From Dictyostelium discoideum (Eukaryota), in assembly GCA_000004695.1 (NCBI GenBank), contig CM000153.2:1920001-1984000 (forward strand): a stretch of DNA of 64,000 bases, written 5' to 3'. A model generated the notes under the pieces. That model did no database searches. It was not told the origin of the DNA and saw nothing but the letters and a program-made list of their open reading frames with translations. Position numbers and translations under genes: made by a program. How positions within the stretch are numbered: position 1 is the first letter of the stretch; every line of letters starts with the position of its first letter. Shown piece by piece: positions 7,039 through 64,000 of the stretch.

Positions 7039-8732
7039 GAAAGAATTTATCCAATAAATAGAGCAATTCAATTTGGTAAACAATTTCATCCAGGTAAAGC
7101 AGAAGTTAAACAAAAATTGGATAAAACAGCGATAATACAATTAATATTACAACATTTATCAACCAAAGGATTGAAACAAACCAAACAAACCTTGGAGAAG
7201 GAAGCAAGAACCACTACACCGATAGTAGAGGGATTAAATGAGAGTAGATTGGTTACATACATTAGAAATGCATTAAAGGATACAGATAGGATCTATGATT
7301 TATCGATGGAACATACAGAGTATAGTAAAGAGGAGAGACAATCAAAGATAACGGAACGAGAGGAACTACTATTTCAAATGGATTTATTGGAGGATGAAGA
7401 CGAAGATGACGGAGTCAACATATGGGATGAACCAACAGAGAATATCATCACAGAGAAAGTACACACCACAGAATACGATATAAATAAAAGCAAAGAGAAT
7501 AAAGATGATCAAGACGATGAAGTGGTTAAATTTGCATCATTGAATAAATTGGTGGAACATTTAACACACGACTCAAAGCATGATTTACAATTCTTAAAAA
7601 CCTTTTTAATGACCTATCAATCGTTTTGCACACCAGAGAAGTTGATGTCAAAACTCCAACAACGTTACAACTGTCCATCGGGTCATGACGAGATGGCCAC
7701 TAGAAACATCCAAATTAGGGTCATCAATGTGTTGAAAGGTTGGGTGGACAATTATTACTCGGATTTCGATGATAAATTAATTGCAATGTTACGTACATTC
7801 ATCGACCAAATTCAAATTAAATTCCCCGCACCTGCAAGTGCCGTCAATAAATCCCTAACAAAGATGGTGGAGAAACTCTCACCAGTGAACGATAGCAAAC
7901 ACATTTTCAATGAGAAAACACCCGAACCAATGGTACCAAAGAATATCTTCTCCAATAATCTCTCAATATATGATATCGATGAGGAGGAGATCGCAAGACA
8001 ATTGACTTTAATCGAATTTGAAATCTATAGAAACATTAAACCACCCGAACTCTTAAATCAATCTTGGAATAAAACAAAACTAAAATCACGTGCTCCAAAC
8101 GTTTTAAAGATGATCGATCGTTTCAACTCCGTTTCAATGTGGGTGGCCACAATGATCATTCAAACCACAAAAGTTAAAGCACGTGCTCGTATGATGACTC
8201 GTTTCATAAAGATCGCAGATCATTTGAAAAATTTAAATAATTACAATTCCCTTATGGCAATCATCGCTGGTCTTAACTTTTCCTCGGTTTATCGTCTAAA
8301 GTATACTCGTGAAGAGTTATCCGCTCAAACTATGCGTACCTATTCCGATTTAGAAAAGATTATGAACTCTGAAGGTTCCTTTAAAACCTACAGAACTCGT
8401 CTTCAAAATGTTCCTCCAATGTTACCTTATTTGGGTGTTCATCTAACCGATCTCACTTTTATCGATGAAAATCCAAATAATTTCGTCACTGACGTTGGTG
8501 GTAAACAGGTTAGTCTAATCAATTTCACAAAGAGAACCCTAGTTTTTAAAATCATCTCTTTGATTCAAGAAACTCAAGTCGTACCTTACAATCTTCAACC
8601 AGTTCATCAAATTCAAGAGTTTTTATTAAATATTAGAAGTGATCTCAAAGCTCATACTCTCGATCAATATCAACAAGAATTATATAGAGAATCACTTAAA
8701 AGAGAACCAAAGAAAGCTCAAAGATCTGATGT

Positions 8733-8764: not shown

Positions 8765-8999
8765 CACATAAAAACAAAAAAAAAAAAAACCAATAAATAA
8801 AAATTATACAAAAAAAAAGAAATAAAATAAAATAAAATGTTTTCAAAGATTTTTTTTTGGATCTTTTGCCAAAAAAAAACAAAAAAAAAAAAAAAAAAAC
8901 TTTTTTCTTGAAATTTGTACAAACATTAATTCCAAAGCAACTGCACACAAACAGATTATTTTTTTATTTTAGAAAAAAAAAAAAAAAAAAAAAAAAAAA

Positions 9000-9680
9000 A
9001 TGAAGATTTTTATAAGAGGTAAAGGTTATTATATGGGATTGGAAGAAAAGATAGAGTTAAATGTTGAACCAATAGATACAATACTAAAATGTAGAGAATA
9101 TACTGGTGGTAATAAAACATTTTTCGATAGGGAAGGTAGATTATTAGGTTTATATGAGCAGTTTCAAAGTAGTGGTTTAAAAGAAGGTGATACAATTGAC
9201 ATTTGTTCATTTCCATTAGAGATTGCTTTTCTAACTTTTATATTACAAATACTTCAAGTTAAAGGAAATAATCATTTAGAAATAAATAGACTTAGAACAA
9301 AATTATTCAATAAAACTATTGATAATAAAATATATTCATCTCAATTAGATAAAATGAAACATTTATTTAATGATAGAGGTAATTTTCTTATAAAAAAACA
9401 AAAAAAAAAAAAAAGAAAGAATCATATTTTATTTTAAAAATACAATTAATTAATAATTAAATATATATATCATTTTATAAAAATAAAAGTGCCAAATGAT
9501 ATTTTAGAAAATGTATATTCAGATTATATTAAATATGATAGTATAGATAGGGATCCACTTCACCACTTTATAAAAAGAGTTTTTAATGTTAATAAAAATA
9601 ACAAACAAATTTTAGCTTCACCGAAATTAATTTCTCAAAAAGATGTTATAGATTTAGATAATAATAATAAAAATAAAAAT

Positions 9681-10182: not shown

Positions 10183-12341
10183 CACAAACATCTCCAAACC
10201 TAAAACAACAAATATCACCAACTAAAACAACAACAACGACAACTAATACAACATCCACAACAATAAATAAAATAAATACACCAACTAAAGATATTTCTTG
10301 TTTAAATATATCCACACCAAAAACAACATATAATATAAATAATACACCACCATCAGCTTTATCAATAAATAGCGCAAATTCGATAAGTTCAGTAAATTCA
10401 GTAAATTCAGTAAATTCATCATTTAATTACAACATTGAAGGTGTTGATGACGAATCAACAGATTTGGAAGATAATGATCAAGTATTTACTGATACAGAAG
10501 AAGATGAAAATGATCGTTATAAGGTTAATAATAATTTAGAAAATTCATTTAAACGTGAGCTTACAGAAGTTATTAGATGTGATACTGATGATTTTGAAGT
10601 TTATAAGAGATCTAAAAATGGTGATGATGTGGTTATATCTTCTCAAAGCTATACTTATAATTCAGCATCACAACCATTACCAACAACAAATGAATTGACA
10701 ACACCACAAATATCACCAAATAGTTCAACTTCAATGGTACCCGCCACCACCACCACCACCACCACCACCACCACTAATACTACAACAACAAAAACAACAA
10801 CATCTCAATTAACACCAACTAAAAAGAATTCATTACCAATTTTAAATTTTGATAATAATATACCAATTAATGGTGATATTAGAAAAGCTATTGAATCAAA
10901 TAATGAAAATAAAATAAAAGAGAAAAAATATAAACCAACATTTCAAGGACAACCAGTTTCATTTTTATTGGCTCTATATGAATTACGCGCAACACAAGAT
11001 ACTCATTTCAATTTAGAAGATGTAAAAGCAGAGGCACAGAAATTTACAGATGTTGAAGTTCGTAACCGTGATAGAAAAGGTGATAATGCATTTCGTAATG
11101 CATTATCTATGTTATCTCAATTAATCTCTAGAAAATTAATTAATTTCGTTAGGGAGGAAGATTTATATTTGACTAAAGAAGGTTGGGATTTTACAAAACC
11201 AATTTATCCATATATGCAAGATTTTAAAGAATTTACAATGATAAATAAAACAAAAATGGATTTGGCTCAAGATAAAGTAATGATTCTCGTTGATAGTTGT
11301 GAAAATTTCAAATCCGATATATTAAGAAATCTTCGTGAGAAAGGAATTTTTTGTATGGAGATGTCTTTACCTTCTAGTGATTTCTTATTTGTGAAATATA
11401 AAGAGGGATTTCAGGATGACATAAAGAATTTGGAGTTTTATCCATACTTGTTTGAAAGAAAGACTTGGAGTGATTTCAATTCATCAAGAAAGGATACTAG
11501 AAATATTCGTCAAAAATCAAAAATGAAATCTTATGATAAAATTAAAAAATCATTTTATATCATCGAAGGTGATGAAATATTACAAACTAATTTACCAATG
11601 GATACATTGAAATGTCATTTGGATCAATATACACTAATGGAAGGTTTTACAATAATTAGATCACAATCACTTATCGATACATGTACCCAACTTGCAATCG
11701 TTGCAAAATTATTATCTGACGACCCACATTTATCAACTAGGGATCAAGATTCTATGTGTAATCTATTGGAATTTAGAAATCAAGTTTTAAATTCAAGAGG
11801 TGGTAATACAAAAGAATCTTATGACCAATTTCAAGATGAAACTAGATCCGTTATAATTTCAAATTCAAATATGGGTGAAATGATTAGAGTTTCAATTTCT
11901 AAAGAACAATTTAAAGAGTACATATTATCACCACTCTATAGAGAAACTGTTAAATCCAAATTGGATGATTTTTACAATGAAAGGAAATTATTACTCTTTG
12001 AATCATATGAATCATTAAGAAAAGAAATTTATTCTCATCATAATCTTTTATTTAAAGGTTTTTTAACTTCCGTTGAAAAAGGTTTAGATATTAGTAATAT
12101 TGGTTATCGTTCAGAGAATTTATTACTTTCCGATTACATTGATAATCAAACTATAAGTTATAATCTACTTCATATTTTATTAACATTTGATTTTCAAACA
12201 ATTACACATTTTAATCAAGCAACATTATCAAATATCAGAAGTACTTCAACTTTAAATTCAATTGTTCAAAGTTGTTTAGATTTTCCAAATCCATCAACAA
12301 CTGTTTATAATAAATTAATTGCAAAACCAGTTGGTAAATAA
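9000..12341 (+). CDS. Large protein (about 1076 aa) carrying an ERCC4/XPF-family nuclease-fold domain (Mus81/Eme1-like). Two exons: 9000..9378 and 9490..12341.
   Basis: Donor GTAATT at 9379, acceptor AG at 9488-9489 (phase 1+2, GTG=Val). The middle region aligns block-for-block with the XPF nuclease domain found in this same window: ILVDSCENFKSDILRNLREKGIF...LPSSDFLFV...LFERKTWSDF...KKSFYIIEGD versus IIIDSHEFKSSLPVVLHNNGYEI..LEVGDFVLS..CIERKSVSDL...NPILLIEFD. The ERK motif and both flanking Asp are retained. The first residue of the GDF motif is Ser. Long poly-Asn, poly-Gln and poly-Thr linkers are typical of Dictyostelium. Confidence 0.55.
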
Positions 12342-12444: not shown

Positions 12445-15340
12445 TTAAAAACATTTTCTATGAACAATTCCTCTACCAACTTCATCATATTCTTGTTTTG
12501 TAATCCATTGATCCGAAAAAGTTTTAAGATCACCTAAAACCGAACCACCACACCAAACACTAATATCACGATTTGGTGGTGCATTAATTTTAATTTGGAC
12601 TTGAGGATTTGAAACTAAAAGTTCCATTTCTTTTTGTAAACGTTTTTCAAAACCTGTTGCCATTGTTGAACCACCAGAAACTACAATATTTTTATAGAGA
12701 TCACGACGAATATCAATATCACAAGAGGTGATAGTTTCATTTAAGAGGTGATGAATACCATTTTGATCTTTACCTAGTACTGAAGGGTCAAAGAAAGCTT
12801 CATAACAACGGAATCTTTCTTTACCAATGGTTAAAACTTGTTTATCGGGCATCGTATAATCCTTGAGTATATTATTATCCTCTGGAGCATTCATAGAGGC
12901 ATAGAAATCTTGAGAGACAAATGAAGTTTTCTCTTTGATATCACGTACGATTTCTCTTTCGGCGGTTGTAGTGAAAGCATAACCTCTTTCAGTGAGTAAA
13001 CGCATTAAATACTCTGTGATATCACGACCACCGATATCGATTCTTTTAATTGCATGTGGAATAGAATAACCTTCATAGATTGGCACGGTATGACAAACAC
13101 CATCACCACAATCCAATACGGTACCAGTGGTACGACCAGATGCATACAAAGAGAGAACGGCTTGAATTGCTATATAAACTGCAGGAGTATTGAAATATTC
13201 AAACATTGTTTCGACCATTCTTTCTCTGTTCGCTTTTGGATTAAGTGGTGGTTCAGTTAATAAAACTGGATGTTTTGAAGCATCGACACGAAGTTCATTT
13301 GTGAATGTATATTCCCAAAGTGCTTCCATATCATTCCAATTGGTGATGATACCATGTTCAATTGGGTATTTAATATTGAGAATACCACGTTTAGCTTGAG
13401 CTTCATCACCAATGTATTTATCTTTACCCATACCATGCATAACTGAATTGAACATTGGATAACCAATGATCGATGGGAAAACACATCTTGGAGCATCTTC
13501 ACCAGCAAATCCTGCTTTAACCATACCACTACCATTATCGATAACCAATGTTTTTTCAGTGATTTTTTGAAAGAATTCAGCACGTGAACTTTTGGCTTTA
13601 ATTGATTCTTGATATTTTGCAAATGATGGTGGTTCTGGAATATTTGCTGCTTTGGCATCTGCATAGTTTTCAATGACAGCGGTCGATTTAACTGGTGGAT
13701 TAAATGATAGATCAGAGGTTTGTTTCCAAAGTTTATCCATTTCATCCTCTTCAGACTCGGTTGAAGCAACTTGTTGTTGTAATGGTACATTAATGATTGA
13801 AGGGAATTTTGGTGGAGCTTTCTCTTTCTCTAAAATAAAGAATGTCCAAGCTTCAGAACGAATTGGTTGATTTTCATAATAAACCATAACACCATAACCA
13901 CCAGCAACCGTTGGAGTATAGGTAGCAGTGAAAGTACCATCATTGTTATTCTTTATATCACCATGAATTTGAATTCCAGGTGGACCCTGTACAAATACAT
14001 AAAATCTTTGACCTGGTGGCAATTTTCCAGCCTCGATTGGATTACCTTTACTAGTACGAGCAACAATTGTAAATGTTGATAAAACACCAGGAGAACCAGT
14101 TTCTAAACCAGGTCCATATGCTTCACATTTCAATGGATCGACTAAATCTAAAGCACCAACGGAAATAGTTGGTGCTTCATCAATGTTTGATATATGTGGT
14201 TGTTGATCACCAATTGGTGTATTTTGTAAATAGATAGCAATTGCATAACCACCAGCTTTTGGTGGTGTATAAGTTACATTGTAAGTACCATTTTGTTGAT
14301 CGACAACTTTTCCATATAATTGATCACCATATTGACCTTGAATTAAAACATTAAATGTTTCACCACCTTTTGTATGTTTATTACCTTTGGCATCATATGC
14401 CTGTATTATAAAACTACATTCTCTACCAACAATACCTTTCTTTAAACCATCACCACTAACTTTACATTGTGATGCTTCAGCAATACCAATACTTGGGATA
14501 TTATTAATATTTGGAAATTCTAATTTAGTTGTGGTGGTGGTGGTTGAAGTAGTACTTATATTTGATGTTGGTGGTGATGGAAATTGATCAATAGTTGCAG
14601 TCGATTCTTTTGGTACTGATGGGAAATCCATTAATAAATCATCATTACCACCGCCACCACTACCATTTGATGGTGCAGATGGAAATTGTTCAGCTAAAGA
14701 AGTTAAAGTGAAATCAGGAATACTTTGTTGTAAATCAACTAAAGGTGGTAATGCTGGAGTATCCCAGGCTACATTATGTTTCTTTGCAATATTACTAAGA
14801 TAATAGTTTACCAATGATTCTTCAGGTGGTTTATTTGATAATCTATGTACAATCTTTGGATTGATACAACAACAATCTATACATTCCTCTGGGAATTTTT
14901 TACCAAATTTTTCAATTAATCTCTTTCTAATCTTATATAATTCAACTTGTTTATCTAAATATGGTGATGCAAATATAATACTACAACATGCTTCTTTTAA
15001 ATCTGGTGGGCATACCCTTTTTTTTTAATTTATAAAATAAATTTAAATTAATTAGTTTTGGAAATATTAAGAGTGAGTGGAGTGGTGTTATCATTAATAT
15101 TGCTTACTTTACACCTTCAATTCCTCTAATTCTATTTGCTAAAGTTTCACAATAAATAATTAAAATACCTAAAACTTCAGTGTGATAATCTTCATTAATA
15201 ACTGAAACCGTTCTAACTCTTGCTTGTTCTTCTTTACCTAATTGTAATAATTCTGCAATCTCTTTTTTATGAACATTACTTTGTTCAAAATTTTTATTTT
15301 TATGTAATACCAATCTACTATTTGCTAATTTGAGTAACAT
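12445..15340 (-). CDS. fia: Filactin: Ist1-like N-terminal domain + filamin-type Ig repeats + C-terminal actin domain. Two exons: 15340..15108 and 15016..12445.
   Basis: The C-terminal 375 aa are a complete actin fold ([31 protein letters not shown]...[20 protein letters not shown]). The middle has filamin repeats ([40 protein letters not shown]...[18 protein letters not shown]; a second repeat ...[19 protein letters not shown]). The N-terminus aligns to IST1 ([20 protein letters not shown]...[43 protein letters not shown]...[29 protein letters not shown]). A 91-nt intron runs from donor GTAAGC at 15107 to acceptor AG at 15018-15017 and is phase-consistent. The ORF-track start at 14814 is a TTG inside the exon. 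Confidence 0.8.
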
Positions 15341-15576
15341 ACTCCTATTATTTATATAAATAAAATAATCAATTATAATTATAATTAATATATTATTAAT
15401 ATTTTCTTTGAATGGATACTAAATATCAAATGAGTATACAAACATATTAGGAATTGAAAATCCTGTCATTTGAGTTTTTTATTTTTTATATATATATATA
15501 TACAAAATGTTATATTAACAAATTATAATTAATTTAACATCCAAATTTGTAGTTTATTAAAAAAAAAAAAAAAAAA

Positions 15577-15607
<31 letters not shown>

Positions 15608-15985
15608 TGAAAAAAAAGGATTTAATTTGTTCTAAAAATTCAAAAATTAAAAAAATTTAAATTAAAATAAATAAAATTTCAAATTACTTGAAAATTTAAT
15701 AAACACCTCAGTGCATGTAACCCTAACTTTCTGTTTCTGGCGAATTGTTTAATTGATTTCTATTAAATATTTATTTTAATATGAAATCAAAAAATGATTT
15801 TTTTAATTTTTTTTTTAAATATTTCATTGTTGTTTATTTTTTTTTTTTTTATTTTACAAAAAAAAAAAATTGAGTAAAACCTTTCATCAAAAATTAATAT
15901 ATAAATAAATTAATATTCATTTAATTTAAAAAATCTAAATCCATTTTTTTTTTTTTTTTTTTTTTTTAATCTGTCCACAACTCAT

Positions 15986-18051
<2,066 letters not shown>

Positions 18052-18989
18052 TTTTTTTTTTTTTTTTTATTGTAATAACAATAAAAATGTAATTATTGTG
18101 TTAAAAAAAAAATAAAAGGGGAGGGGTACTAAAAAAGGGGAAAAAAAACCGTGGCTTAAACTGAAGGCACCAAGTTCGCAAAAAAAAAAAAAAAAATTTG
18201 CAAAAATAATTTTTTATTTTTAAGAAAGAAAGTTAATATCTTCAGTTTCTGGATCACAACAAATATTGTGGGCTATTAATAATTTATTATATTTTCTCTT
18301 CGCTATTACTATTGTTTGGTTTATTTATTTGTTTATTTTTTTTTCAATTTTTGTTTGACCAAAAAAAAATAAAAAAAATAAAAAAAATAAAAAATAAAAA
18401 AAGATATTTTTTAATTTGGTTTTGAAGGTAAATATTGAACAGAAGCAACAAAATCCTCATCGATTAAATTCATTTGGGTTGGTGAAATGAAAGAATGGGT
18501 GTTGTTTTAAACGAATCCAAAAATCTCAATGTAAATTTGGTTATTTGATGATTTATAACTCCATCCTTCCAGTTTCATCAACTTCTCCGTTCTATCTATT
18601 AATACATCTTTATTACCTGTAATTGAATAATTAGTGTTTTGCTTTTATCCAACTTTTGGATAAAAGGTGTTTTTTTTGTATATCCATCTCCAACCTTATC
18701 TTTTTCACAAATATCCAATTTTTTTAAAATAAATATCCATAGTTTTTTTTTTTATATTGAGATTGTTGAAATAAAAAAAAAAATCATAAAAAAAAAAATA
18801 AAATAAAAAAAAATAAAAAAAAATAAAAAAAAAAAACGTTTTTTGAAAAAAATTAAATTTTTTATTGTTGTTTATTTATTTATTTTTTTTTTATTATAAA
18901 AAAAAAAAAAAAAATTTAGAAAAACCTTTCATCAAAAATTAATATATAAATAAATTAATATTTATTTAATTTAAAAAATCTAAATCTAA

Positions 18990-19038
<49 letters not shown>

Positions 19039-19056
19039 CATCTATCCACAACTCAT

Positions 19057-20857
19057 TTATTTTTTTGGAATTAAAATTGGATGAGCTTCAGTATTGAAAA
19101 TATATTTATCTAATGGAATAACTGACGAAGGTTGGAATGATAAATAAAGATATTTTAAAGTTTATGACATAAAGAAACTTTCTTGAGTATCATCCAAAGA
19201 TTTTCTATCATCAACATTTTTAAGACCATTATAACCATTTTCATGTCTACAAACATCTTCAATTGCTTCAAAGATTTTCCATGACCATTCTTGATATTTA
19301 ATATCACCTACAAAAAAAAAGATATTAATATACTACTAATTTACAATTATTACTAAAATTATAATTAATTAAACATACCTGTTAAACGATATAAAATGAA
19401 TAATGATTCAACAGTTTCAGGACGTAAAATATACCAACTATATGTACCATGAACATTCCAACTAATATTACCAGAATCTGGATCGACACGGAATGATTCA
19501 GGAGCTAAACCAGATGGTGAAGTTAAATAAGTTTTTACGCAAGTTTTAGTTATCATTTCACCAACTTCCATATACTTAGCAGACTTTTTATCATCTTGAG
19601 TAATATTTGCAGCGGCAGCTAATGCAAACATACCACCAGCGAAACAAGCTAAATGTTCTTGAATGTTGGTTAGAGAGTTATGATCCATGGCTGAAAGGTA
19701 ACCATCACCTTTTGGGGAAACTTTGTACAAATGTTCAATGATAGAATCAGCAGATTCAACAAATAGACGTCTATAGATTTCGTCTTCACCATTTGTATAA
19801 ATCCACATCTTTAAGAGATATTCATAATAGGAATCACCTAAACCACCAATTGTAATAAAACTACCACAGAAACCATTTGCGTCTTGATTTACAAAAACTG
19901 GAAATAGACCTGGAATGTTTGGTTTCAATTTGGAGAGAGCATCAATCACTCTATCAGAGTATTCCTTATACTTTGGATCACCTGATATTCTTGAAAGTTC
20001 ATTAAATTCTAAAAATAATGTAGATACTTCTGATAAAATTACACAACCGCCAGTCCAACCTGGATATGTCTTTCCATGAGTTGCTAATCTAATTTGTGAT
20101 GCTGGGAATGGATTTTTAGTGTCTTTTGGGAATGCATATAATAATAAATCACCAATCTCTACTGCTTTCTCTAAATACATTTCATCATTTGTTAATCCAT
20201 ACATTGTTACATGTGATCCTAAAACTCTAATAATCGTTTCAAATACTGAAACTGCCATTCCCTTTTTTTTTTTTTTTTAAAAAAATTAAAATAAAATAAA
20301 AATTAATAAACATAAACCTTAAAACCATAAATATAAATCTAATATAAACATACAGTATTTTTAGATTGTTTTAATACATTAGCAACCCAATCTCTACCTT
20401 CTTTATATTCTTTATCTAAATTCATAATTTTAAGAGTATCTAAAGAATCAATAATTGTTAGACCAAGACCAAACCATTCTTTATGACTTTTTGTTAATGG
20501 TCTTAATTCATCTTGACCCCATGCAAATTCTTTATATTTTTCCCATGCATGTTTCATTGCTCCTCTAACTTGTTCTGATCTTTTAATATTTAATTTTTCA
20601 TTTTGATAATATACTTCATCAATTTTATTATATGGATTTCCTGTTTCAATTGTATTATTAATATTATTATTATTAATATTATTATTATTATTATTATTAT
20701 TGTTTGTATTATCTTTTTTTTGAATTACATTTTTCCATTTTTCAGGAATTGTATGAGCATCGATTTTATTTGTTCCTTCAAAACTAAAAATCGTAGATAT
20801 ACCAATAAGGAAAGCTACAATTACAATTGCAAGAAACAGTTTGATTTTTGTGTCCAT
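19057..20857 (-). pseudogene. GH47 alpha-1,2-mannosidase, tandem copy 2, carrying an in-frame premature stop in the last exon. Exons: 20857..20354, 20261..19379, 19307..(stop at 19164-19162; the intact copies end at 19057).
   Basis: The structure is the same as copy 1. In exon 3 the codon that is GAA in copies 1 and 3 (…ESFFMSETLKYLYL…) is TAA here, from a single change on the plus strand: tttctgacat becomes tttatgacat. This removes the C-terminal ~35 aa, including the conserved FNTEAHP segment. It could be a genuine pseudogene or truncated allele, or a sequencing error, so confidence is moderate. Confidence 0.5.
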
Positions 20858-21722
20858 TCTTATTTTTTTTTTTTTTTTATTGTAAAAACAATAAAAATGT
20901 AATAATTGTGTTAAAAAAAAAAAAATATAAATAAAAAAAAATTAAATTTCAAGCAAAAAATAAAAGGGGTTGTCTAAAACGAAAATTTATTTAAGTTTCT
21001 AAAATGGTTGATACTTTTTGAACCTAAAAACCATGGTTAAAACTGAAGGCACCAGGTTGGATAAACATAAAATATTTTACTTTCAAAAAACAAAAGCTAC
21101 CAAATTCGCAAAAAAAATTTTTTTTGGAAAATAGTTTTATTTTTAAGAAAGAAAGTTAATATTTTCAGTTTCTGGATCACAACAAATATTGTGGGATATT
21201 AATAATTTTTTATTTTCTCTTTGCTATTACTATTGCTTGGTTTAAAAAAAATAAAAAAAAAAGATATTTTTTAATTTGGTTTTGAAGGTAAATATTGAAC
21301 CGAAGCATGATTCCAATCATAAGCAACTAAATCTTCATCGATTAAATTCACCTTAACGTTTTCCCCTTTTTTTTCCACCTTAACGTTTTCCCCTTTTTTT
21401 TTTCACCCCCACCCCCCTTTTTTTTTAACACCATATCAAATTTCGCAGTCCCCTACATTTTATTAATTTTTTCACCTTTACCCCTTTTTTTTTAACATTA
21501 TTTTATAATAATTTCCACATTATGATATTTTTATTTTCTAGTTTCAGGTATAAAAAAAAAAACAAAAAAAAGGGGAATGAATAAAGAAAAAGCAATTTTT
21601 TTTTGTTTACACACAAAAGTAGTGGGTTTATTTTTTAAAAAAAGTGAAAATTAATTTTTTTTTTTTACTCTTTATAAAATTACTAAAAATGTGGAAATTT
21701 CAACATTAATTGTTTATTTATT

Positions 21723-21759
<37 letters not shown>

Positions 21760-21968
21760 CACTTAAAAAATCTTATTTTCTCCACACACAAATTTTTTTT
21801 TCCACCTAAAATTTTTTTTTATACCAGATTTAAATGATATTTTTTTATTTTTTATTTTTTTTAATTTAAAAATTTTATTGTTGTTTATAAAAATAAATTC
21901 AGTAAAACCTCATCAAAAATTAATATAAAAAAAATTAATATTTATTTAATTTAAAAAATTTAAATCTA

Positions 21969-21999
<31 letters not shown>

Positions 22000-22016
22000 A
22001 TCGGTCCACAACTTAT

Positions 22017-22267
22017 TTATTTCTTTGGAATCAAAATTGGATGAGCTTCAGTATTGAAAATATATTTATCTAATGGAATAACTGACGAAGGTTGGAATGA
22101 TAAATAAAGATATTTTAAAGTTTCCGCCATAAAGAAACTTTCTTGAGTATCATCCAAAGATTTTCTATCATCAACATTTTTAAGACCATTATAACCATTT
22201 TCATGTCTACAAACATCTTCAATTGCTTCAAAGATTTTCCATGACCATTCTTGATATTTAATATCCC

Positions 22268-22328
<61 letters not shown>

Positions 22329-23832
22329 TACCACTAATTTACTATTATTACTAAAATTATAATTAATTAAACATACCTGTTAAACGATATAAAATGAATA
22401 ATGATTCAACAGTTTCAGGACGTAAAATATAAAAACTATATGTACCATGAACATTCCAACTAATATTACCAGAATTTGGATCGACACGGAATGATTCGGG
22501 AGCTAAACCAGATGGTGAAGTTAAATAAGTTTTTACGCAAGTTTTAGTTATCATTTCACCAACTTCCATATACTTAGCAGACTTTTTATCATCTTGAGTA
22601 ATATTTGCAGCGGCAGCTAATGCAAACATGCCGCCAGCGAAACAAGCTAAATGTTCTTGAATGTTGGTTAGAGAGTTATGATCCATGGCTGAAAGGTAAC
22701 CATCACCTTTTGGGGAAACTTTGTACAAATGTTCAATGATAGAATCAGCAGATTCAACAAATAGACGTCTATAGATTTCGTCTTCACCATTTGTATAAAT
22801 CCACATCTTTAAGAGATATTCATAATAGGAATCACCTAAACCACCAATTGTAATAAAACTACCACAGAAACCATTTGCGTCTTGATTTACAAAAACTGGA
22901 AATAGACCTGGTATGCTTGTTTTCATTTTGGATAGAGCATCAATCACTCTATCAGAGTATTCCTTATACTTTGGATCACCTGATATTCTTGAAAGTTCAT
23001 TAAATTCTAAAAATAATGTAGATACTTCTGATAAAATTACACAACCGCCAGTCCAACCTGGATATGACTTTCCATGAGTTGCTAATCTAATATTTGATGA
23101 TGGGAATGGTTTTTTAGTGTCTTCTGGGAATGCATATAATAATAAATCACCAATCTCTACTGCTTTCTCTAAATACATTTCATCATTTGTTAATCCATAC
23201 ATTGTTACATGTGATCCTAAAACTCTAATAATCGTTTCAAATACTGAAACCGTCATTCCCTTTTTTTTTTAAAAAAAAAAAAAATAAATTAAAATAAAAT
23301 AAAAATTAAAAAACATAAACAATAAAACCATATATATATATCTATTACATACAGTATTTTTAGATTGTTTTAATACATTAGCAACCCAATCTCTACCTTC
23401 TTTATATTCTTTATCTAAATTCATAATTTTAAGAGTATCTAAAGAATCAATAATTGTTAGACCAAGACCAAACCATTCTTTATGACTTTTTGTTAATGGT
23501 CTTAATTCATCTTGACCCCATGAAAATTCTTTATATTTTTCCCATGCATGTTTCATTGCTCCTCTAACTTGTTCTGATCTTTTAATATTTAATTTTTCAT
23601 TTTGATAATATACTTCATCAATTTTATTAAATGGATTTCCTGTTTTCTTATAATTTTTATTATTATTATTATTATAATTATTATTATTATTATTTTGAAT
23701 TACAATTTTCCATTTATCAGGAAATCTTTGGGCATCGATTTTATTTCTTCCATCAAAACTCAAAATAGTAAATATACTAATAAGGTAAGCTACAATTGCA
23801 ATTGCAAGGAACAGTTTGATTTTTGGGTTCAT
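22017..23832 (-). CDS. GH47 alpha-1,2-mannosidase, tandem copy 3 (intact). Exons: 23832..23353, 23259..22377, 22267..22017.
   Basis: The exon structure and splice sites match copy 1 (donor GTATGT after ...QSKNT; acceptor AG then GGA-ATG; final acceptor ...TTTAG|GGGATATT). Exon 3 is full-length (…[39 protein letters not shown]). The Asn tract is short. Confidence 0.75.
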
Positions 23833-24589
23833 TCTTTTTTTTTTAAGGGTAATAAAAATAAAAATGTAATTATTGTGTTAAAATAAAAATAAAAATAAAA
23901 AATTTTAAGCAAAAAGTAAAAGGGATTGTCTACAACGAAAATTTATTTAACTTTCATAAATTATTGATTTTTTTTGAAACCTCGAAAAAAACGTGGCTTA
24001 AACTGAAATCACCACGTGGGCTTAAAATATATTTTTCTTTCAAATAAAAAATGTAAATTTGGGTATTTGATGATTTTTAACTCCCTCCCATTTTCATCAA
24101 CTTCCCTTTATTCATAATTCTGTTAATACATCTTTATTACTTGTAATTAACAAACCAATTGATCTTAATATTTCCTGTAACTATATTTTTCATTTTTGAT
24201 TGGTTCTAAATGTGAAAATTTTTGATTGGTCCAAAATGTGAATATTTTTTTTAATATTTTTTTTTGAAAAAAAAAATCGATGTTAAAATAGTTATTTATT
24301 ACCTCTAGTTTAAATATTTGGTTATTGATCCCTTGAGAAAACTAATGTCTCTGAAATTTCTTTCTCTCCATCCGTAAACTCATTTTCGATCTCATTAATT
24401 TTTCATTAAAAAAAGTTTAATTTTTGATCTTTGTTAAATGTTGTTGTCTTTATTAAAATAAAATGGATTACAGTTTTAAATAATGCTCAAAAAAAAATAT
24501 TATCTTTAAAAAAAAATAATAATATCTGTTGCAATATATTTGTGTAAACACAATTATTGTAAGATATTTGTTTTAGGGAAATTTTTTTT

Positions 24590-25039
24590 GAAATTTCACT
24601 GCCTTAAGGGTAGCGAGTTTTCACACTAAAATGCACTACCTTAACGGTAGTAAGTTTTCACACTGAAATCCACCACCTCGCCCACGTGGGAAAAATTTAC
24701 GTGGTGAGTTTTTAATTTCGGTTGTAAAAATTTTTAAACATAAAATCAAATATAAAAAAAAAAATTTTCAAATAAAGATCGTAATCAATTTTTAATTTTT
24801 CCAACATAATCAACCTTATTATTTTTTATTTATTTCTTAATTTTTTTATAGTATTTCTCAAATAAAAGATTTTAACATGAGCAATAATTTAGGGGAGTAT
24901 TTAAGTTATTTTATTAAATAATAAATAATAAATTTTAAATTATTGTGGAAATGTTCAACATGGTAGCTTCTCTACATTTGGATAAATATATAAAATAATT
25001 ATAAAAAAAGATATATAATACAAAAATTTTATATACTAA

Positions 25040-25110
<71 letters not shown>

Positions 25111-26060
25111 ATCAACATTCCGATTTTGATCATGAGGAAATTTACCTACGCTCTACCAATTTCCCTTTGGTAGGGCGTAGGTCTCGTAAGCCCAATAGTT
25201 CAATACCAAAGGGATCAACAAAGATTCTTTTGAGCGAACGGATCATAGTGAAGATAGAGTAAGTGGCAGCCCTATAGACGCTTATGATAAACGAGGTATG
25301 AATAGTATGGATACAGCACAGATCTAGCAGAAAACATCAGAACCTCAGATAATCAGGCCATAGTGGTAAATTGTAAGGATATGGAAGTCAAAACTTCAAC
25401 TCAACAATCAGTGGTCTGAAAAACTACTGGATTGGATGAGTATCAAAGACCGTCCAACTTAGCAAGTCTCAGTGATGACGTGAATTTTCTAAAAGGTGAT
25501 GATCAACTTAAAGTATATTATTGGCAGAACCTCAATTAAAGTCAAAAAGTTAAAAGCTAAGACTGTTAAGCAACTAATGGTAAATGTTAAAAACCCAATA
25601 TCCATTGAACAACGTAAACAAGCTGTTGTAAAATTCATTAAAGATCCAACCACCGACCAAAGGTTTATTAGTGGATTAATGGATTTGGTTAATTTTCAAA
25701 ATTCTCACTCAATGAATAGTAACAAACCAGATAAAACTAAATTTGAATTAATTAGTAACATATGTTTCAAATGATGCATTGACATTCTCTTGGACAAGAA
25801 ATCATTAGATTTAGAAAACCAACGTGGTAAACCATAACTATAATACCTCATAATAATCTTAAACACTAAACCTTGGATTCCAGCCTCATCTTGAACTTTA
25901 AATGGTTCAAAAGAAATTAACATTTTTAATAAATTTGGTGCAATCTGAAATCCAGTTGAAAGAAGAGGTGGTAAATCATTGGAAAGAACATCATAACATT
26001 TTAAGGTTATTATCAGATTTAATATTTTGAAAATTAAAATCTAAAGGCGGAGTGTTGTTT
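24590..26060. mobile_element. Patch of atypically GC-rich (about 40-45% GC), non-coding-looking DNA containing short tandem repeats and a long hairpin. Putative transposable-element remnant; family not identified.
   Basis: The composition departs sharply from the surrounding intergenic DNA, which is below 15% GC. There is a two-copy tandem motif at 24601-24680 (taccttaa[c/g]ggtag..agttttcacact.aaat). A 14-bp stem hairpin lies at about 25147-25187 (ctacgctctaccaa…ttggtagggcgtag). Only short unconserved ORFs are present (25496-25774 plus strand, 25705-25923 minus strand). I found no LTR, TIR or tRNA by eye. Confidence 0.35.
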
Positions 26061-26518
26061 CAGTATAAAAATAATTATAAATAATTTCCAATATAAATAG
26101 AAAATTTTTAAAATAAAGATTATAATCAAATTTTGTAAATTTCCCAACATAATCAACCTTGTTATATTATGTATTTCTTAATTTATTTTAAAAAAACAAA
26201 AAGTTTCACAAATTACACATTAAGTAAAAAAGTTTTAAAAATGAAAAAAATTCTTGTCATAATTCAACTTTTTTAAAAAAAAAAAAAAAATTATACAAAT
26301 TAATTAAAAGATAAAAGTATTTATATTTTTTAGGGTTACTATTTTAAAATATAGAACATATGGGACAAATTTAAAATAAAATTAAGAAATATTCATTTTT
26401 TTTTTATTTTTTATATCACTTTGTGTGTTTACTAAATTAATAATATTGTTTTTTTAAATGATTGTTTTTTATTTTATTTAAATTTATTTAATAAGATGAG
26501 TGATTGAAAATAAGGTTT

Positions 26519-27726
26519 TTATTGTTGCCAAATTGAAATTGAACCAGCTTCAGTACCAGTTAATAAAATTGGTTTATTTGAAGATTGATTAATTGAAACA
26601 TTTAAAGAATGAATTGATTCATTTGAAGATTGAGATAAGAAAGGAGAGATAGAATCTTTTATTTCAGTACCAGTTGTTAAACTCCAAAGACAAAGACCAC
26701 GATCAGTACCAATGATTAGAGAAGAACCATCAGAGTCCAAACAATGAATTTCACCTTTTACTTTGAAACTAAAGATTTCTGAACCTTCTATACCAATCAA
26801 TTTTACAGAGCCATCAATACAAGCGGTGATAATTCTCGATCCATCAGGAGTGAATTTAATACACACCAACTCGTCAAAGAAACAACTGATTCTACGAATC
26901 AATTGAAGTGTGAGTAAATCGTAGAAATAGAGATAACCATCGCTTGAGCCCGCACAAAATATGGTACCATTTGAACTGATATCGATCGACCTTATCTCAG
27001 TATCTGAATCTACGAAATCTGCAATTGGTGTTTTTTCAATGGAGATTGCACCATTGGATTGTCTATGAGTTCTCCAAACCTTTACAGATGAATCCCAACT
27101 ACCCGATACCAATATATTGTTATTATGTAACTTTAGACATGATACAGCATCACTATGACCCGGTATTGAATAACTTATACTACCATTTCCCACTGAATAG
27201 ACATAAATATTATTATCCCATGAACCAATGATAATATATTTCTCATCCTTTGATAATTGAAAAGATGATAATGCCAAATTACAAAGATTTAATGATCTAA
27301 TTTGTCTCTTTTCTTTTAAAGAGTAAATCTTTAAACAACTATCCAATGATACTGAATAAATGGTTTCACTATTATTTGATAAATATAATGCACTAATCTT
27401 ATCTTTATGTAATTTTATATTTTGATTAAATTTTAAAAAATTTAATGATCCCCAATTATTACTATTATTTCTTTCTTCGCCTAAAAATGTTAAATTTTCA
27501 TTTTCATCATTTAAATTTTCATTTTCATTATTAAAATTATTATCATTATTTTCAAAACCATTACTATTTTTTATATTATCACTACTATTACTATTACTAT
27601 TATTTTTTTTATCATTACTATTTTCATTATTCTCATTATTTAAACTATTTATATTTTCAATATTATTTATATTATTATTTATATTACTATCTATATAATT
27701 ATTATTTAAATTACTATTACTATTAC

Positions 27727-27760
<34 letters not shown>

Positions 27761-30085
27761 TAAATTATTATCATTATCATTATTTAATTCATTAATATTA
27801 CAATTATTTAATTCATCAAAAATGAAATTAATATTTTGTTCTAAATCACTTAATTCAATTTTTAAATTTTGATTTCTTAATTGTTGTGGTAAACGTTGTG
27901 GATGAGGAGTTTTAAAGATTTGTCTTGGTGTTTGACCAAACTCATTGATTTGAGCTTCCATACCTTCACGTTCGAATGGATTAGTGATTGATTCAATATC
28001 TATACTACCTTCATAGGTTAAATGATAAAATAAATTATTAGCTCTAACTGCTTCTTCACCTTTTTGTTTATAACCAAATATTAAATCGATCCAATGATGA
28101 AGATTTTGTGATACATATTCAGACTCCAATGCTTGATGTAATTTACTAATGAAATCTTTTGGTGATGAAGCCCATGGTGGTAAAATAATATCATTAATTA
28201 CATTATTATCTTGACGAATACCTAATGGTAAATTTTCGGAATTTGTTAAAAAAATACCATTTTCAAAATTATCATCATCATCGCCGCCGCCGCCATTTCT
28301 ACTACTACTTGATGATTCAAATGATGGTTTATAAAATTCTGGAATTAATTCTTTAACATCTGTTGTACTATTTAAAACTGAATTCCAAGTTTCTTCAATT
28401 GAATAAAACATACGATTTGGTGAATCGAATCTACCATTTTGTAAACGTAACATATACTCTGGTACTTGTCTAACTAAAAAGTATAATACATAAGCTGGTG
28501 TTGAATAATGTGTACCATAGAGGAATTTTGGTTGATCATCGGGAATCTGATGATAACGATCTTGAAATGTGGCTAATCTAGTTGGATTTAGTGCACCAAT
28601 TGGTTTGGATAAATCTCTAAAGGTCTCATTTCTATTTAGATCCAATGTTGTAGATTGGTAATCCGCTATAATCCATGGGAAAACAGGATACTGCGTCAAA
28701 TCATTGAATGTTCTACCTGCTAAATTATTCAAATACAATAGATAATCGTAGTTTGATATGATACCATTTTGCCACTTTAATAGATAATTAGCCTGTTCAT
28801 TGATATGCATTATATTGGTACATAAATGTTTAACCAATAAATCATAGACTTGATTACGTGTGATTGTGTTATTAAATTTTAAGAATAAACTTGACCCATC
28901 ATCGAAAAACAATTCCAAACCAATCTCTCTTAAACTATGTCTTCTTTGTAATACCCTAATGATCGATTGTAAACTATAATTCTTTAATCGATTCTCTTCA
29001 ATGTTATTCATTGGTTGAAAGTATAATCTTGCATTTGTAATTAATAATCTACCTGGATTCTCTACCAATGGTGAAATTTTTGAACATTTTAATTCTAATA
29101 TATTCCTTTCATTCATATCAACCAATTGTGTTATATCAAAAAATATTTTATTCTCTCTATCTTCTACCATTTGTTTAATCAATTCATCCCTTTGAATCTT
29201 TTCTTTACCAGAATAATTATGAAATACTTTCATAACATCTAATACTATATTTTGTTTTACATAATTAAATGAAAATTTAAAATCTATATTATTATACTTT
29301 TTTTTAAAATTAAAAAAAAAAAAAAAAAAGAGTATTAATCATCAATAAAATTATATTATAAATATATATATAATGTTAATTTTAACATTTTTACTTACTT
29401 GTTTAAATATATATGGATGATTTCTAGAATTTTCTTTCATTTCAATAACTTGTGATGATTTTACATAGAAAATATCCCCTTTACTTGCTAAGAATGAAGG
29501 TTTTGCTTGTTCAAATAATTGTGATAATAATGGTGATGGTGGATTTGGACTAACTGAAAATGATGTATATGGATTGGTTGCAATGGTTGGGGTTGGTGCT
29601 ATAGATGTTGGTTGTGGAGTTGGTGGTGTTGGAGTTGGTGTTGGTGGTGTTGGTGTTGTTACTTTTGAAGTTAATGATGAAAATGATAATAATCTAGAAA
29701 AAGCTGAACGTGTTGGTGAAGGTTGTTCAACAACTATTGGTGGTGTTGGTGTTGGTGTTGGCTTTGATGGTGATAATATTGATTGTGGTATTGGTTGTGG
29801 TGTTGGTAAATGAGCAGGTGGTGCTGATGATAATGAATTTAACCATGCTCCTATACTTGACATATCTTTATATGGAAATTTCATTATTGGTAATTTTGAA
29901 TCGTCAGGTTCAAAAAACATTGAGCTTGAACAAACTAATATTCTACCTGCTATTCTCTTTTGCCATGATTCTTCCTCTGTATTTGACGGTGGATAAAAAA
30001 TTGCACTATAATCATCAAAATAATATTCTCCTTCATCCATTAATGTTAGATTAAATCTAACTTTATTTATATTTTTTGAAAACAT
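26519..30085 (-). CDS. lvsF: BEACH-domain protein of the FAN/NSMAF type (GRAM-like N-terminus, PH-like domain, BEACH domain, C-terminal WD40 repeats), about 1154 aa. Two exons: 30085..29399 and 29296..26519.
   Basis: BEACH core: ...ISNYDYLLYLNNLAGRTFNDLTQYPVFPWIIADY...LSKPIGALNP...QPKFLYGTHYSTPAYVLYFLVRQVPEY. WD repeats in the C-terminal 300 aa. The GRAM-like first exon (...EGEYYFDDYSAIFYPPSN...GRILVCSSSMFFEPDD) ends at donor GTAAGT (29398) and rejoins at acceptor AG 29298-29297 in phase 0. The domain order and size match the Dictyostelium LvsF/FAN-like protein. The gene symbol is given from memory and is unverified. Confidence 0.65.
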
Positions 30086-42162: not shown

Positions 42163-42361
42163 ACTCGTTTTAATCACTCGACCAAAAAATTTTTTTTTTT
42201 TTTTTTTTTCTTTTTTTTCTTTTTCTTTCATTAAAAAAAAACATTACAATAATAATAATAATTTATATATATTTAAATTTGGATAAATAATTTTTATAAT
42301 TAACTTTCCAATATTTTATTTTTTTTATTATTAATATTATTTTTTTTTTTAACTCAACAAA

Positions 42362-48065: not shown

Positions 48066-49603
<1,538 letters not shown>

Positions 49604-62568: not shown

Positions 62569-63104
62569 ATTAAACAATAAACATTTCCTAAAATCAAAAA
62601 AAAAAAAATCTTTAAGATGGTTTGATGTTAAAAAAAAAAAAAAATATAAAAAAATAAAAAAAAATAAAAAATTTAAAAAATTTAAAAAAAATGATCGGTA
62701 TTATATTATAATGCCGAATAATATAATACCAACCTCGACAATAATTAAATTTAAATTATTTTTAAATTATTTTTAAATTAATATAATTAAAAATAGAACA
62801 AGATATTTATGAAGTTGAAATTTCAATTTGTTATATATTAAAAATTTAATTTAACACACAAAAAATTTAAATTAATTAATGATACTTAAAAATGTTTATT
62901 TATTTTTTTAATATTATTAAAAAATTTTTTTTTTTTTTTTTTTTTTATTTGAAATATTGTTAATTGTGTTAAGCTATTATTAATGCGCTTTTTATTTATT
63001 ATTATTACTTTATTATTTGTAATTTTATTTTTTATTTTTTTTTTTATTTTTTTTTTAATACTACACAAAACGCGTTTATTTCTTTTTTTTAAAATTTATA
63101 TAAT

Positions 63105-63854: not shown

Positions 63855-64000
63855 TATATTGTTATATTTATATTGGTTGGTTGATGTGTGCTTCTGTTTG
63901 TGTTTTTGTATTATTTAATATTATATATGCGTATTTTTAAAATATCTAAATTTTTTAATTATTTAGAATAATGAATTTTGAAAAAAAAAAAAAAAAAAAA

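Follow-up and report, generated by a model that had tools for sequence, protein, structure and literature searches.

The island at positions 25111-26046 (+ strand) of the window, i.e., of the whole 64-kb stretch of Dictyostelium discoideum DNA under analysis, is tentatively interpreted as a single-locus remnant, in decay, of a small protein-coding element with a lineage-restricted distribution. Its core of about 400 bp, which carries a still-open reading frame (ORF) of 91 codons, belongs to a family whose only other members found are two dispersed D. dimigraforme copies. The family would derive from a selfish or mobile element of low copy number that has since died out in D. discoideum or can no longer be recognised there. 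A mobile or selfish origin appears most likely, although the family does not look like any well-known transposon family, judged by its structure and protein similarity; the island is probably without an essential role at present.

This interpretation corrects an attractive story, because the island is neither a fresh transposon insertion nor the seed of the GH47 triplication. It offers a concrete case of dictyostelid intergenic turnover, in which a putative coding relic is eroded by microhomology-bounded deletion, and adds a small sequence family of D. discoideum and D. dimigraforme that is described in no database. Should the family turn out to be expressed, or to form the tail of a mobile element not yet characterised, the gene or repeat catalogue of Dictyostelium would gain one entry; none of these results has a bearing on any long-standing open question.

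Setting and features of the island

The window is DNA of the AX4 type and comprises, in this order, filactin, three copies of a GH47 mannosidase gene, the island, and lvsF, whose ORF corresponds to residues 251-1154 of AX4 Q54PP7. L002, which is 99.4-99.6% identical to the window, has the same island; two independent AX4-type assemblies and another strain carry it. Comparisons also included two divergent “D. discoideum” genomes that differ from the window by about 6% (L001 and L003) and two contigs of D. dimigraforme with one family copy each (L016 and L017). The features referred to in the text are as follows.

24597-24678, + strand: tandem motif of 37 bp in 2.2 copies (TRF, 84% matches)
24677-24713, + strand: hairpin CTCGCCCACGT/ACGTGGTGAG around the palindrome CCCACGTGGG, followed by TTTTT (fold of -13.9 kcal/mol)
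24692-24942, + strand: left copy of a direct repeat, with a core at 24725-24850 that contains CCAACATAATCAACCTT
25038-25109, + strand: A-run of 72 nt at the left border of the island (TRF)
25111-25484, + strand: GC-rich left part (about 40%), closed by stops in every frame and without any detectable homologue
25122-25847, strand not applicable: segment of 726 bp absent from L001 and L003, bounded by ATTCC/ATACC microhomology
25144-25182, + strand: hairpin with a 16-bp stem (16-nt arms, 94% complementarity, 7-nt loop)
25485-25891, + strand: family core of about 400 bp, homologous to the two D. dimigraforme copies
25499-25774, + strand: ATG ORF of 91 codons (92 codons from GTG at 25496), from the ORF list
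25848-26046, + strand: right block of the island, also found in L001 and L003 (92% identity), where indels of 1-2 bp break the frame
26060-26200 (self-match extent 26036-26302), + strand: right copy of the direct repeat, with the hairpin part mostly deleted in AX4

A coding core shared with D. dimigraforme

Evidence for the family comes from both nucleotide and protein comparisons. When the two D. dimigraforme copies (L016, 11387-11761; L017, 9938-10123 and onward; ACTA71_003880 and ACTA71_009613) were combined into a profile, nhmmer matched it to positions 25485-25891 (E=1.6e-17), the sole significant match in the 64 kb. The core is 61-68% identical to these copies in blastn alignments, with a Smith-Waterman z of about 20 against shuffles. 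The two copies share about 650 bp at 79-85% identity, but are located on separate contigs, and neither adjoins lvsF or a GH47 gene. At the protein level, a full HMMER search retrieved P0124, an ORF of the same locus with 98% identity to that of the window, and the only other relatives among 1.84 billion representative proteins were P0127 and P0128, both hypothetical proteins of D. dimigraforme (phmmer E=7.7e-5 and 1.4e-4; 46% and 40% identity to the core in tblastn). P0125 and P0126 were rejected as relatives because their scores were spurious sums over repeats. All contigs bearing P0124 in D. discoideum assemblies and read sets (nine of nine) represent the present locus, and self-comparison yielded no second copy of the island within the 64 kb.

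The 91-codon ORF spans the conserved peptide ...RKQxxVxFIxDPTxDQRFIxxxMDL..., and an ORF is kept in all three family copies (91, 118, and 117 codons). The two D. dimigraforme copies diverged under purifying selection, as shown by a dN/dS of 0.20 in segment B and of 0.34 in segment A; the ratios between AX4 and the D. dimigraforme copies are 0.25-0.39. The earlier note had described only short ORFs without recognisable domains, which is borne out by a maximum length of 92 aa on the + strand and 72 aa on the - strand (25705-25923) and by the absence of any Pfam domain. A gene on the - strand was rejected, because neither the 72-aa ORF nor a 118-aa model predicted in L002 has homologues and because the frame is broken by the indels of L001 and L003.

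A functional orphan gene that has escaped annotation would likewise account for the intact ORF and for dN/dS values under 1. From the + strand, such a gene would be transcribed into an RNA with a structured leader rich in GC (25111-25498) that encodes a helical protein of 91 aa; its protein family would be restricted to dictyostelids, and the gene would be present in some lineages of D. discoideum and absent from others. This alternative is unlikely. In its favor, AX4 and a second D. discoideum strain both have an uninterrupted ORF, ORFs are retained throughout the family, dN/dS is between 0.2 and 0.4, and of the two strands only the + strand folds better than shuffled sequences. By contrast, the codon bias of Dictyostelium is absent. 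GC3 is 0.28 in the ORF and 0.28-0.31 across the family copies, as opposed to 0.16-0.19 in neighbouring host genes. Protein searches revealed no AX4 protein model over the ORF, and the sole gene model in the region is the 118-aa prediction of L002, which has multiple introns and lies on the opposite strand. Both SNPs that distinguish the ORF alleles of the D. discoideum strains alter an amino acid (two residues changed), the weakly similar A-like segment upstream of the ORF is frameshifted in AX4, and the single-sequence AlphaFold2 model is unreliable (pLDDT 45). Moreover, the ORF is deleted in L001 and L003. It is likewise doubtful that the locus is a live gene that is present in the AX4 lineage and deleted in other D. 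discoideum-like lineages, encodes, behind a hairpin-rich GC leader, the 91-aa protein of a new dictyostelid-restricted family with members in D. dimigraforme, and possibly descends from a domesticated ORF of a mobile element.

The island family shares many traits with the orphan small ORFs and pseudogenised copies of dictyostelids: a short ORF (91-118 codons) lacks a domain, has homologues only in a close species, bears evidence of past purifying selection, and varies in presence among lineages. The island family differs from them in that its codon usage is unlike that of host genes and its copies are non-syntenic and located inside ORF-poor islands of higher GC content.

Loss of the island body in related genomes

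The contrast between genomes with and without the island body is explained by deletion rather than insertion. In L001 and L003, the tail is all that remains of the family core; it forms the first 45 bp or so of the right block (25848-26046). L016 is colinear with the window across the junction at 25847, where both have AATACCTCATA...AACACT...TGGATTCCA in common. Since the homologue of D. dimigraforme extends over this junction without a break, the 726-bp gap represents a deletion in L001 and L003, and an insertion in AX4 that generated a target-site duplication (TSD) is ruled out. The candidate copy of a mobile element suspected in the earlier note is therefore not an AX4 insertion, and a search of the island edges for the TSD expected of one gave no usable result. 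The island is thus ancestral at its present position, and the 726 bp were lost from a divergent lineage resembling D. discoideum by deletion between short ATNCC repeats, so that the segment is dispensable. The surrounding intergenic region is rich in further indels, several of which measure 100-700 bp between genomes about 6% apart.

The sequences that border the island are also old. The A-run is found at the same position in L001 and L003, both of which lack the island body, and is therefore ancestral and not the tail of a retroposon. The whole 1.5 kb is flanked by direct repeats of about 190 bp, which consist of 85% AT and have no definable ends; neither TG...CA termini nor a TSD can be assigned in such sequence. 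The core of the left copy (24725-24850) is about 85% identical to 26060-26200, the identity of the copies in a self-BLAST is 68% over 276 bp, and one exact 17-mer occurs twice. L001 and L003 likewise have both copies, so the duplication is older than the split of the lineages.

Comparison with known mobile elements

None of the tested hallmarks of known Dictyostelium transposons is present at the island. ARAGORN detected no tRNA gene in the 64-kb window, in agreement with the inspection by eye in the earlier note, and none in L001-L003, L016, and L017. Terminal inverted repeats (TIRs) are lacking, as the island edges yielded only AT-rich inverted matches expected by chance. Searches of Pfam and of 5.8 billion and 1.84 billion proteins revealed no similarity to reverse transcriptase (RT), integrase, transposase, or gag.

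The original proposal that the island is a fragment of a catalogued repeat (TRE5/TRE3, DIRS-1, Skipper, DGLT-A/P, Tdd-4/5, DDT-A/B/S, or thug-S/T) is improbable. It is consistent with a composition above the intergenic background, the lack of a long ORF, the dispersal of the homologues in D. dimigraforme, the direct repeats around the 1.5 kb, and integrase-like motifs that were noticed by eye beside the L017 copy. However, no copy has a tRNA gene in its surroundings, the A-run is not only ancestral but also on the wrong side for a tail, and the direct repeats persist in genomes with a deleted interior. Catalogued repeat families of Dictyostelium are multi-copy, whereas the ORF was recovered at only one locus in the D. 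discoideum data.

TRE5 integrates about 50 bp upstream and TRE3 about 100 bp downstream of a tRNA gene. The island resembles these elements in that it is bordered by an A-run and, like their 5'-truncated copies, has no long ORFs. It differs from them by the lack of a tRNA gene within 64 kb, by the absence of similarity to ORF1, ORF2, APE, or RT, and by the position of the A-run, which is 5' to the island in + strand orientation and occurs at the deleted allele as well, whereas the oligo(A) of TREs marks the 3' end.

Degenerate remnants of the LTR retrotransposons Skipper, DGLT-A, and DGLT-P reportedly occur in D. discoideum. Like such remnants, the island is richer in GC and poor in ORFs, has dispersed copies in a sister species, is flanked by direct repeats of about 190 bp, and shows a TE-like codon usage; the integrase-core-like motifs read by eye upstream of the L017 copy add to the resemblance. 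By contrast, the island has no RT, RNase H, integrase, or gag domain detectable with HMMs and no protease similarity, and no TG...CA LTR ends, PBS, PPT, or TSD could be assigned to it. Its recovery from a single locus in the D. discoideum data is a further difference, as is, in the case of DGLT-A, the absence of a nearby tRNA gene. DIRS-1 is distinguished by inverted terminal repeats and by tyrosine recombinase and RT, to none of which the island has a counterpart. The differences from Tdd-4/5, DDT-A/B/S, and thug-S/T are the lack of TIRs and of transposase similarity, together with the identification of the ATTCC/ATACC-bounded indel as a deletion.

The integrase-core-like sequence just upstream of the L017 copy is frameshifted and was recognised by eye in the translation. 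It was rejected as an integrase remnant, because neither rve nor any other match was obtained in Pfam, NCBIfam, a phmmer search of PDB, and a tblastn search of plasmids. The AX4 window contains no trace of an integrase.

What survives of the claim of a transposon remnant is the dispersal of the D. dimigraforme copies and the atypical codons; TIRs, tail, tRNA gene, and similarity to transposon proteins did not materialise. That no mobility hallmark was found at the AX4 copy (TIRs, LTR ends, TSD, or tail) counts against a mobile origin, and an ordinary small gene family would account equally well for a pair of copies in one other species. A mobile origin is kept alive by the non-syntenic location of the dispersed D. 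dimigraforme copies, by the host-atypical codon usage of all copies, and by the integrase-like appearance, to the eye, of the sequence beside the L017 copy, despite its negative computed tests. The earlier note had itself named the outcome that would speak for a lineage-specific gene or noncoding RNA (ncRNA), namely a single-copy segment without similarity to repeat families, and this largely applies: the coding sequence of the core is specific to the lineage, and all recovered D. discoideum contigs represent one locus.

The same note had placed the island immediately after the third unit of the tandem array and had considered a mobile element as the cause of the duplication. The homology of the GH47 units, however, stops by about 24150, and the third unit is separated from the island by about 1 kb of DNA with 15-21% GC and the 72-nt A-run. 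Since the homology ends at this distance, nothing ties the island to the tandem duplication, to which it is structurally unrelated. The spacers that separate the GH47 units are mosaics of one another.

The GC-rich left part

The GC content of 40-45% over roughly 1 kb that was originally ascribed to the island holds only in part: about 40% is reached at 25111-25500, whereas the remainder is at 26-29%. By block, the values are 39.8% (25122-25500), 29.1% (25501-25847), and 26.1% (25848-26046), with an island mean of 32.9%. Of the 64 kb, 2.8% consists of 380-bp windows in which GC is 39% or more. The GC excess would represent a residue of coding-type composition plus a hairpin-rich stretch upstream. 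The left 360 bp, which are the most GC-rich and formed the core of the original observation, have no homologue and remain unexplained by the relic interpretation, which counts against it. A comparison of the left part with the D. dimigraforme loci gave a Smith-Waterman z of about 0 against shuffles and no tblastx match, and there was no match to Rfam or to plasmids and vectors.

The near-perfect inverted repeat that had been reported at about 25147-25187 is real, with the quoted arms at 25146-25159 and 25167-25180. It is part of the hairpin at 25144-25182, which pairs perfectly on the + strand once a G.U pair is accepted; on the - strand, this pair is an A.C mismatch. The folding energies are -27.6 kcal/mol (+ strand) and -23.4 kcal/mol (- strand). 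This is the sole GC-containing hairpin of at least 14 bp in the 64 kb, and when the island was shuffled 2000 times, a comparable one formed in 8 cases.

These properties raise the question of whether the 40% GC part is a structured ncRNA gene on the + strand, with the coding core as unrelated adjacent debris. The region 25111-25520 folds with a z of -3.0 on the + strand as opposed to -0.67 on the - strand, the 16-bp hairpin retains its G.U pair only on the former, and the left part has no coding potential. However, the fold signal stems largely from this one hairpin, there is no homologue usable for covariation, and the left part is deleted from L001 and L003 without a replacement in the sequence examined. 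Rfam covariance models gave no match at gathering thresholds in the window and only chance-level matches at 24400-26300 with E up to 10, and an origin from RNase P/MRP, SRP, snRNA, snoRNA, Class I RNA, rRNA, or introns was rejected on this basis. The DUSE motif (consensus [AT]CCCA[CT]AA) is absent from the expected position about 60 nt upstream; the window contains three matches, the nearest at 21189, a distance of about 3.9 kb. An ncRNA gene is thus scarcely probable. Among Dictyostelium transcripts, dutA is reportedly a developmentally regulated, untranslatable RNA that is very AT-rich and has no ORF of more than 126 nt. The island is similar to dutA, as the latter is described, in that it is intergenic, about 1 kb long, and predicted to be structured, with mostly short ORFs, but differs by its ATG ORFs of 276 and 216 nt and a GC content of 26-40%.

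Recently acquired foreign DNA, be it vector or plasmid contamination, horizontal transfer, or an organellar or rDNA insert, is suggested by the compositional contrast with the flanks alone and is effectively refuted by the absence of blastn matches among 72,556 plasmids (PLSDB), of viral or metagenome-contig relatives, and of rRNA or intron families in Rfam, by the recovery of the island from two independent AX4-type assemblies and another strain, and by the conservation of the tail at a genome divergence of about 6% and the occurrence of the core in another Dictyostelium species.

The tandem motif and the second hairpin

A separate patch of 124 bp with 43% GC (24597-24720) comprises the tandem motif and the second hairpin with its trailing T-run. 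The two-copy, 37-bp motif noted previously at 24601-24680 was confirmed by TRF, which places the array at 24597-24678; no further copy is present in the window, L001, L016, or L017. The surrounding stretch has little counterpart in L001, where 24030-24700 aligns as short patches to about 150 bp. The left copy of the old direct repeat begins with the hairpin at 24677-24713, and the frequency of the palindrome CCCACGTGGG in this hairpin is far above chance. A paralogous copy of this hairpin in L001 folds with -15.7 (z=-4.3), and its stem is kept despite a change from A-T to G.T.

Setting and composition of the island

The sequence is AX4-type Dictyostelium discoideum DNA, in which residues 251-1154 of lvsF (Q54PP7 / XP_638607.1) exactly match a 904-codon ORF. 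A second AX4-like assembly (L002, GCA_054883475.1) is 99.4-99.6% identical to the window over 20 kb; gaps account for most of the differences, each aligned block has just three mismatches, and the island is identical. All genes of the region are on the minus strand.

Features of the region (window positions) and their GC content
end near 14814 (-): filactin-like gene, leftmost
~15800 to ~24100 (-): three GH47 alpha-mannosidase units, ~3 kb each, one gene per unit
24597-24720: separate 124-bp patch inside ~1 kb of AT-rich DNA, 43% GC
25038-25109: A-run of 72 nt, closing the AT-rich ~1 kb
25111-26046: island, mean 32.9% GC
25122-25500: left part of the island, 39.8% GC
25501-25847: middle part of the island, 29.1% GC
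25848-26046: right block of the island, 26.1% GC
26519-29233 (-): ORF of lvsF, right of the island
whole 64 kb: mean 23.3% GC

An earlier note had described a candidate transposon remnant of roughly 1.5 kb, with about 40-45% GC over roughly 1 kb directly after the third tandem unit. The compositional island is real, but its nature differs from that proposed; the GC value holds approximately for 25122-25500 and is overstated for the rest, and unit-to-unit homology stops near 24150, followed by the AT-rich ~1 kb. Elsewhere in the window, GC reaches 39% or more over 380 bp at 7607-8015, 12877-13258 (inside the long filactin-like ORF 12445-14814 (-)), 42352-43710, 45880-46389, 48866-49577, and 63099-63864.

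The smaller features described in that note are present. The 37-bp tandem motif spans 24597-24678 (2.2 copies, 84% matches), and the hairpin is slightly bigger than reported (25144-25182; 16-nt arms, 94% complementarity, 7-nt loop). On the plus strand, where the lone mismatch turns into a G.U pair, it folds at -27.6 kcal/mol, versus -23.4 kcal/mol on the minus strand. It is the sole GC-containing hairpin of at least 14 bp within the 64 kb, and a comparable one arose in 8 of 2000 island shuffles. The ORFs are indeed short (at most 92 aa) and match no Pfam domain.

Partial loss of the island in divergent genomes

The assemblies L001 (GCA_054859385.1) and L003 (GCA_054859355.1) both carry the label D. 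discoideum, yet across genes their identity to the window is only ~94%. A divergence of ~6% is well above that expected within a species, and the two may therefore represent a cryptic sister lineage. The spacer between lvsF and the GH47 genes measures 2687 bp in AX4 versus 1344 bp in L001, and gap-tolerant alignment mapped several large indels.

Differences of the AX4 spacer from L001 (window positions)
24030-24700: alignable in patches only, to ~150 bp of L001
25122-25847 (726 bp): missing from L001
~105 bp of L001: missing from AX4
26181-26340: missing from L001

The 726-bp gap takes out the entire 40% GC part together with the 92-aa ORF. In AX4, the segment is edged by ATTCC (25117-25121) and ATACC (25843-25847), and the 'empty' site consists of the A-run followed by TTTCAACATGCC|TTAATAATAATCT. 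This A-run is found in all genomes compared, which rules it out as a retroposon tail. Identity is 92% in the retained right block (25848-26046), where 1-2 bp indels disrupt every reading frame.

The direction of the change is indicated by a contig of D. dimigraforme (L016), which is unbroken across AX4 position 25847: the 11-mer AATACCTCATA crosses the junction exactly and is followed by AACACT...TGGATTCCA...ATCTT, of which L001 and L003 keep just the tail after the junction. It follows that the L001/L003 lineage lost the 726 bp, probably through a deletion bounded by microhomology, and that AX4 did not gain them; the island is therefore ancestral at the lvsF-GH47 locus. It is partly eroded and was recovered at a single locus in the D. 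discoideum data.

An old direct repeat of ~190 bp, also carried by L001 and L003, lies on either side of the whole 1.5 kb (24692-24942 and 26036-26302). Each copy opens with a hairpin and T-run (CTCGCCCACGT...ACGTGGTGAG TTTTT), continues with AT-rich sequence that includes CCAACATAATCAACCTT, and is 85% AT without definable LTR-type ends. The hairpin and T-run, located at 24677-24713 in the window and at 13870-13925 (-) in L001, look like a terminator; they are conserved across lineages, and an A-T to G.T change leaves the stem intact.

A lineage-restricted coding family

Concatenated ORF translations gave no match in a word-indexed search. A full HMMER scan of the 92-aa ORF against 1.84 billion representative proteins yielded three meaningful matches: P0124 (91 aa, 98% identity) and two hypothetical proteins of D. 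dimigraforme, P0127 (KAN0050732.1, 349 aa, E=7.7e-5) and P0128 (KAN0030963.1, 117 aa, E=1.4e-4). P0125 and P0126 were rejected as repeat-summed artefacts.

P0124 is encoded on short Logan contigs built from read sets of D. discoideum and represents the island locus in another strain, which differs from the window by three island SNPs (25463, 25653, 25727), two of them altering ORF amino acids, and by a single SNP across 1.2 kb of lvsF. Three Logan contigs from different read sets (L010-L012) have their left end exactly at 25422, inside the GC-rich part, and contigs from other read sets continue through this position; the shared ends could reflect the end of a transcript or a branch in the graph, in which case the sequence would have a second context in those samples.

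The two D. dimigraforme genes are on separate contigs (L016 and L017), neither adjoining lvsF or a GH47 gene, and share ~650 bp at 79-85% identity. Their relationship to the island is evident from proteins (P0127 residues 199-255 versus 25559-25723, 46% identity; P0128 residues 1-62 versus 25577-25762, 40% identity) and from DNA (25504-25882 versus L016 11387-11761, 61% identity, E=1e-19). An nhmmer profile of both copies has one match in the window, the core at 25485-25891 (+) (E=1.6e-17), and Smith-Waterman scores of the core against the D. dimigraforme loci exceed shuffles by z ~20. Upstream, 25456-25503 shows a weak, colinear, frameshifted match to the family (NLASLSDDVNFLKGDD versus NLDDTMEDIATFEKDD); against these loci, 25122-25455 on the left and 25892-26046 on the right score like shuffles. 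No relatives were found among metagenome or viral contigs, no domain was found, and P0127 has no further homologues. The core is a diverged representative of a small, lineage-restricted coding family that has dispersed copies in D. dimigraforme.

An ORF spanning the conserved peptide is retained in all three copies (91 or 92 codons in AX4, 118 in L016, 117 in L017). Between the D. dimigraforme copies, dN/dS is 0.20 in segment B (dN=0.082, dS=0.417; 64 codons) and 0.34 in segment A; against AX4 it is 0.25-0.39, with dS saturated. The family thus has a history of protein coding under constraint. Codon usage is TE-like and unlike that of the host, with a GC3 of 0.28 in the AX4 ORF and 0.31 in P0128 versus 0.16-0.19 in lvsF, GH47, and a methyltransferase gene. 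A single-sequence AlphaFold2 model of the ORF is helical and unreliable (pLDDT 45).

We tentatively read the island as what remains of a low-copy coding element, either selfish or orphan, an interpretation with somewhat less than an even chance of being correct. The retained ORF could instead belong to a small gene that is still functional and unannotated, which we consider rather unlikely. In L002, a multi-intron gene model of 118 aa (14163-15921 (+), approximately 25923-24165 (-) of the window) runs antisense across the island and shares its start codon with a 72-aa minus-strand ORF; it has no Pfam match and no homologues and resembles an artefact of ab initio prediction.

Transposon and RNA readings

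That the island is a fragment of a catalogued transposon is improbable. The earlier note had spotted no tRNA gene nearby by eye, and none was found in the whole 64-kb window or near any related copy. There are no terminal inverted repeats at the island edges, no similarity to reverse transcriptase, integrase, transposase, or gag in Pfam and protein searches, and no second island copy within the 64 kb. An origin from a vector or plasmid was excluded at blastn sensitivity.

Just upstream of the family copy in L017, a stretch at 8950-9530 resembles by eye, with two frameshifts bridged, a DDE integrase core (GIP..DSKFTSKLW..SHHEGNGIAERYTRTV) with a C-terminal SH3-like region (..FQVGDKIIV). It is unsupported by Pfam, NCBIfam, PDB phmmer, and plasmid tblastn, is absent from L016, and constitutes an unconfirmed lead. 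The gene-poor stretch downstream of this family copy contains three copies, one inverted, of a ~140-176-nt repeat (10739-10880, 11799-11976, 13344-13519), which may be a small MITE-like element.

A predicted structured non-coding RNA on the plus strand is conceivable because 25111-25520 folds more stably than shuffled sequence on this strand only (z=-3.0, versus z=-0.67 for the minus strand), but it is very unlikely: much of the signal comes from one hairpin, there is no homologue for a covariation test, no Rfam family matches the island, and there is no DUSE motif nearby.

Triplication of the GH47 gene

Between lvsF and filactin, the window carries three GH47 copies (15800-24100; unit boundaries at ~15813, 18858, and 21839), and L001 (14895-16905) and L003 (14909-16937) carry one each. 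Because both are single-copy, the triplication is specific to the AX4 lineage. The suggestion that a mobile element could explain it through ectopic recombination finds no support, since spacer homology between the units is gone by ~24150, ~1 kb short of the island, and island sequence does not recur at the unit junctions.

In the spacer between copies 2 and 3, CACCTTAACGTTTTCCCCTTTTTTTTC occurs twice as a perfect tandem of 27-bp units (21349-21401); it has ACCTTAACG...TTTTC in common with the 37-bp motif, and the two tandems may therefore be related spacer elements. The GH47 copies themselves vary in the length of a poly-Asn tract, with first exons of 215, 172, and 187 codons.
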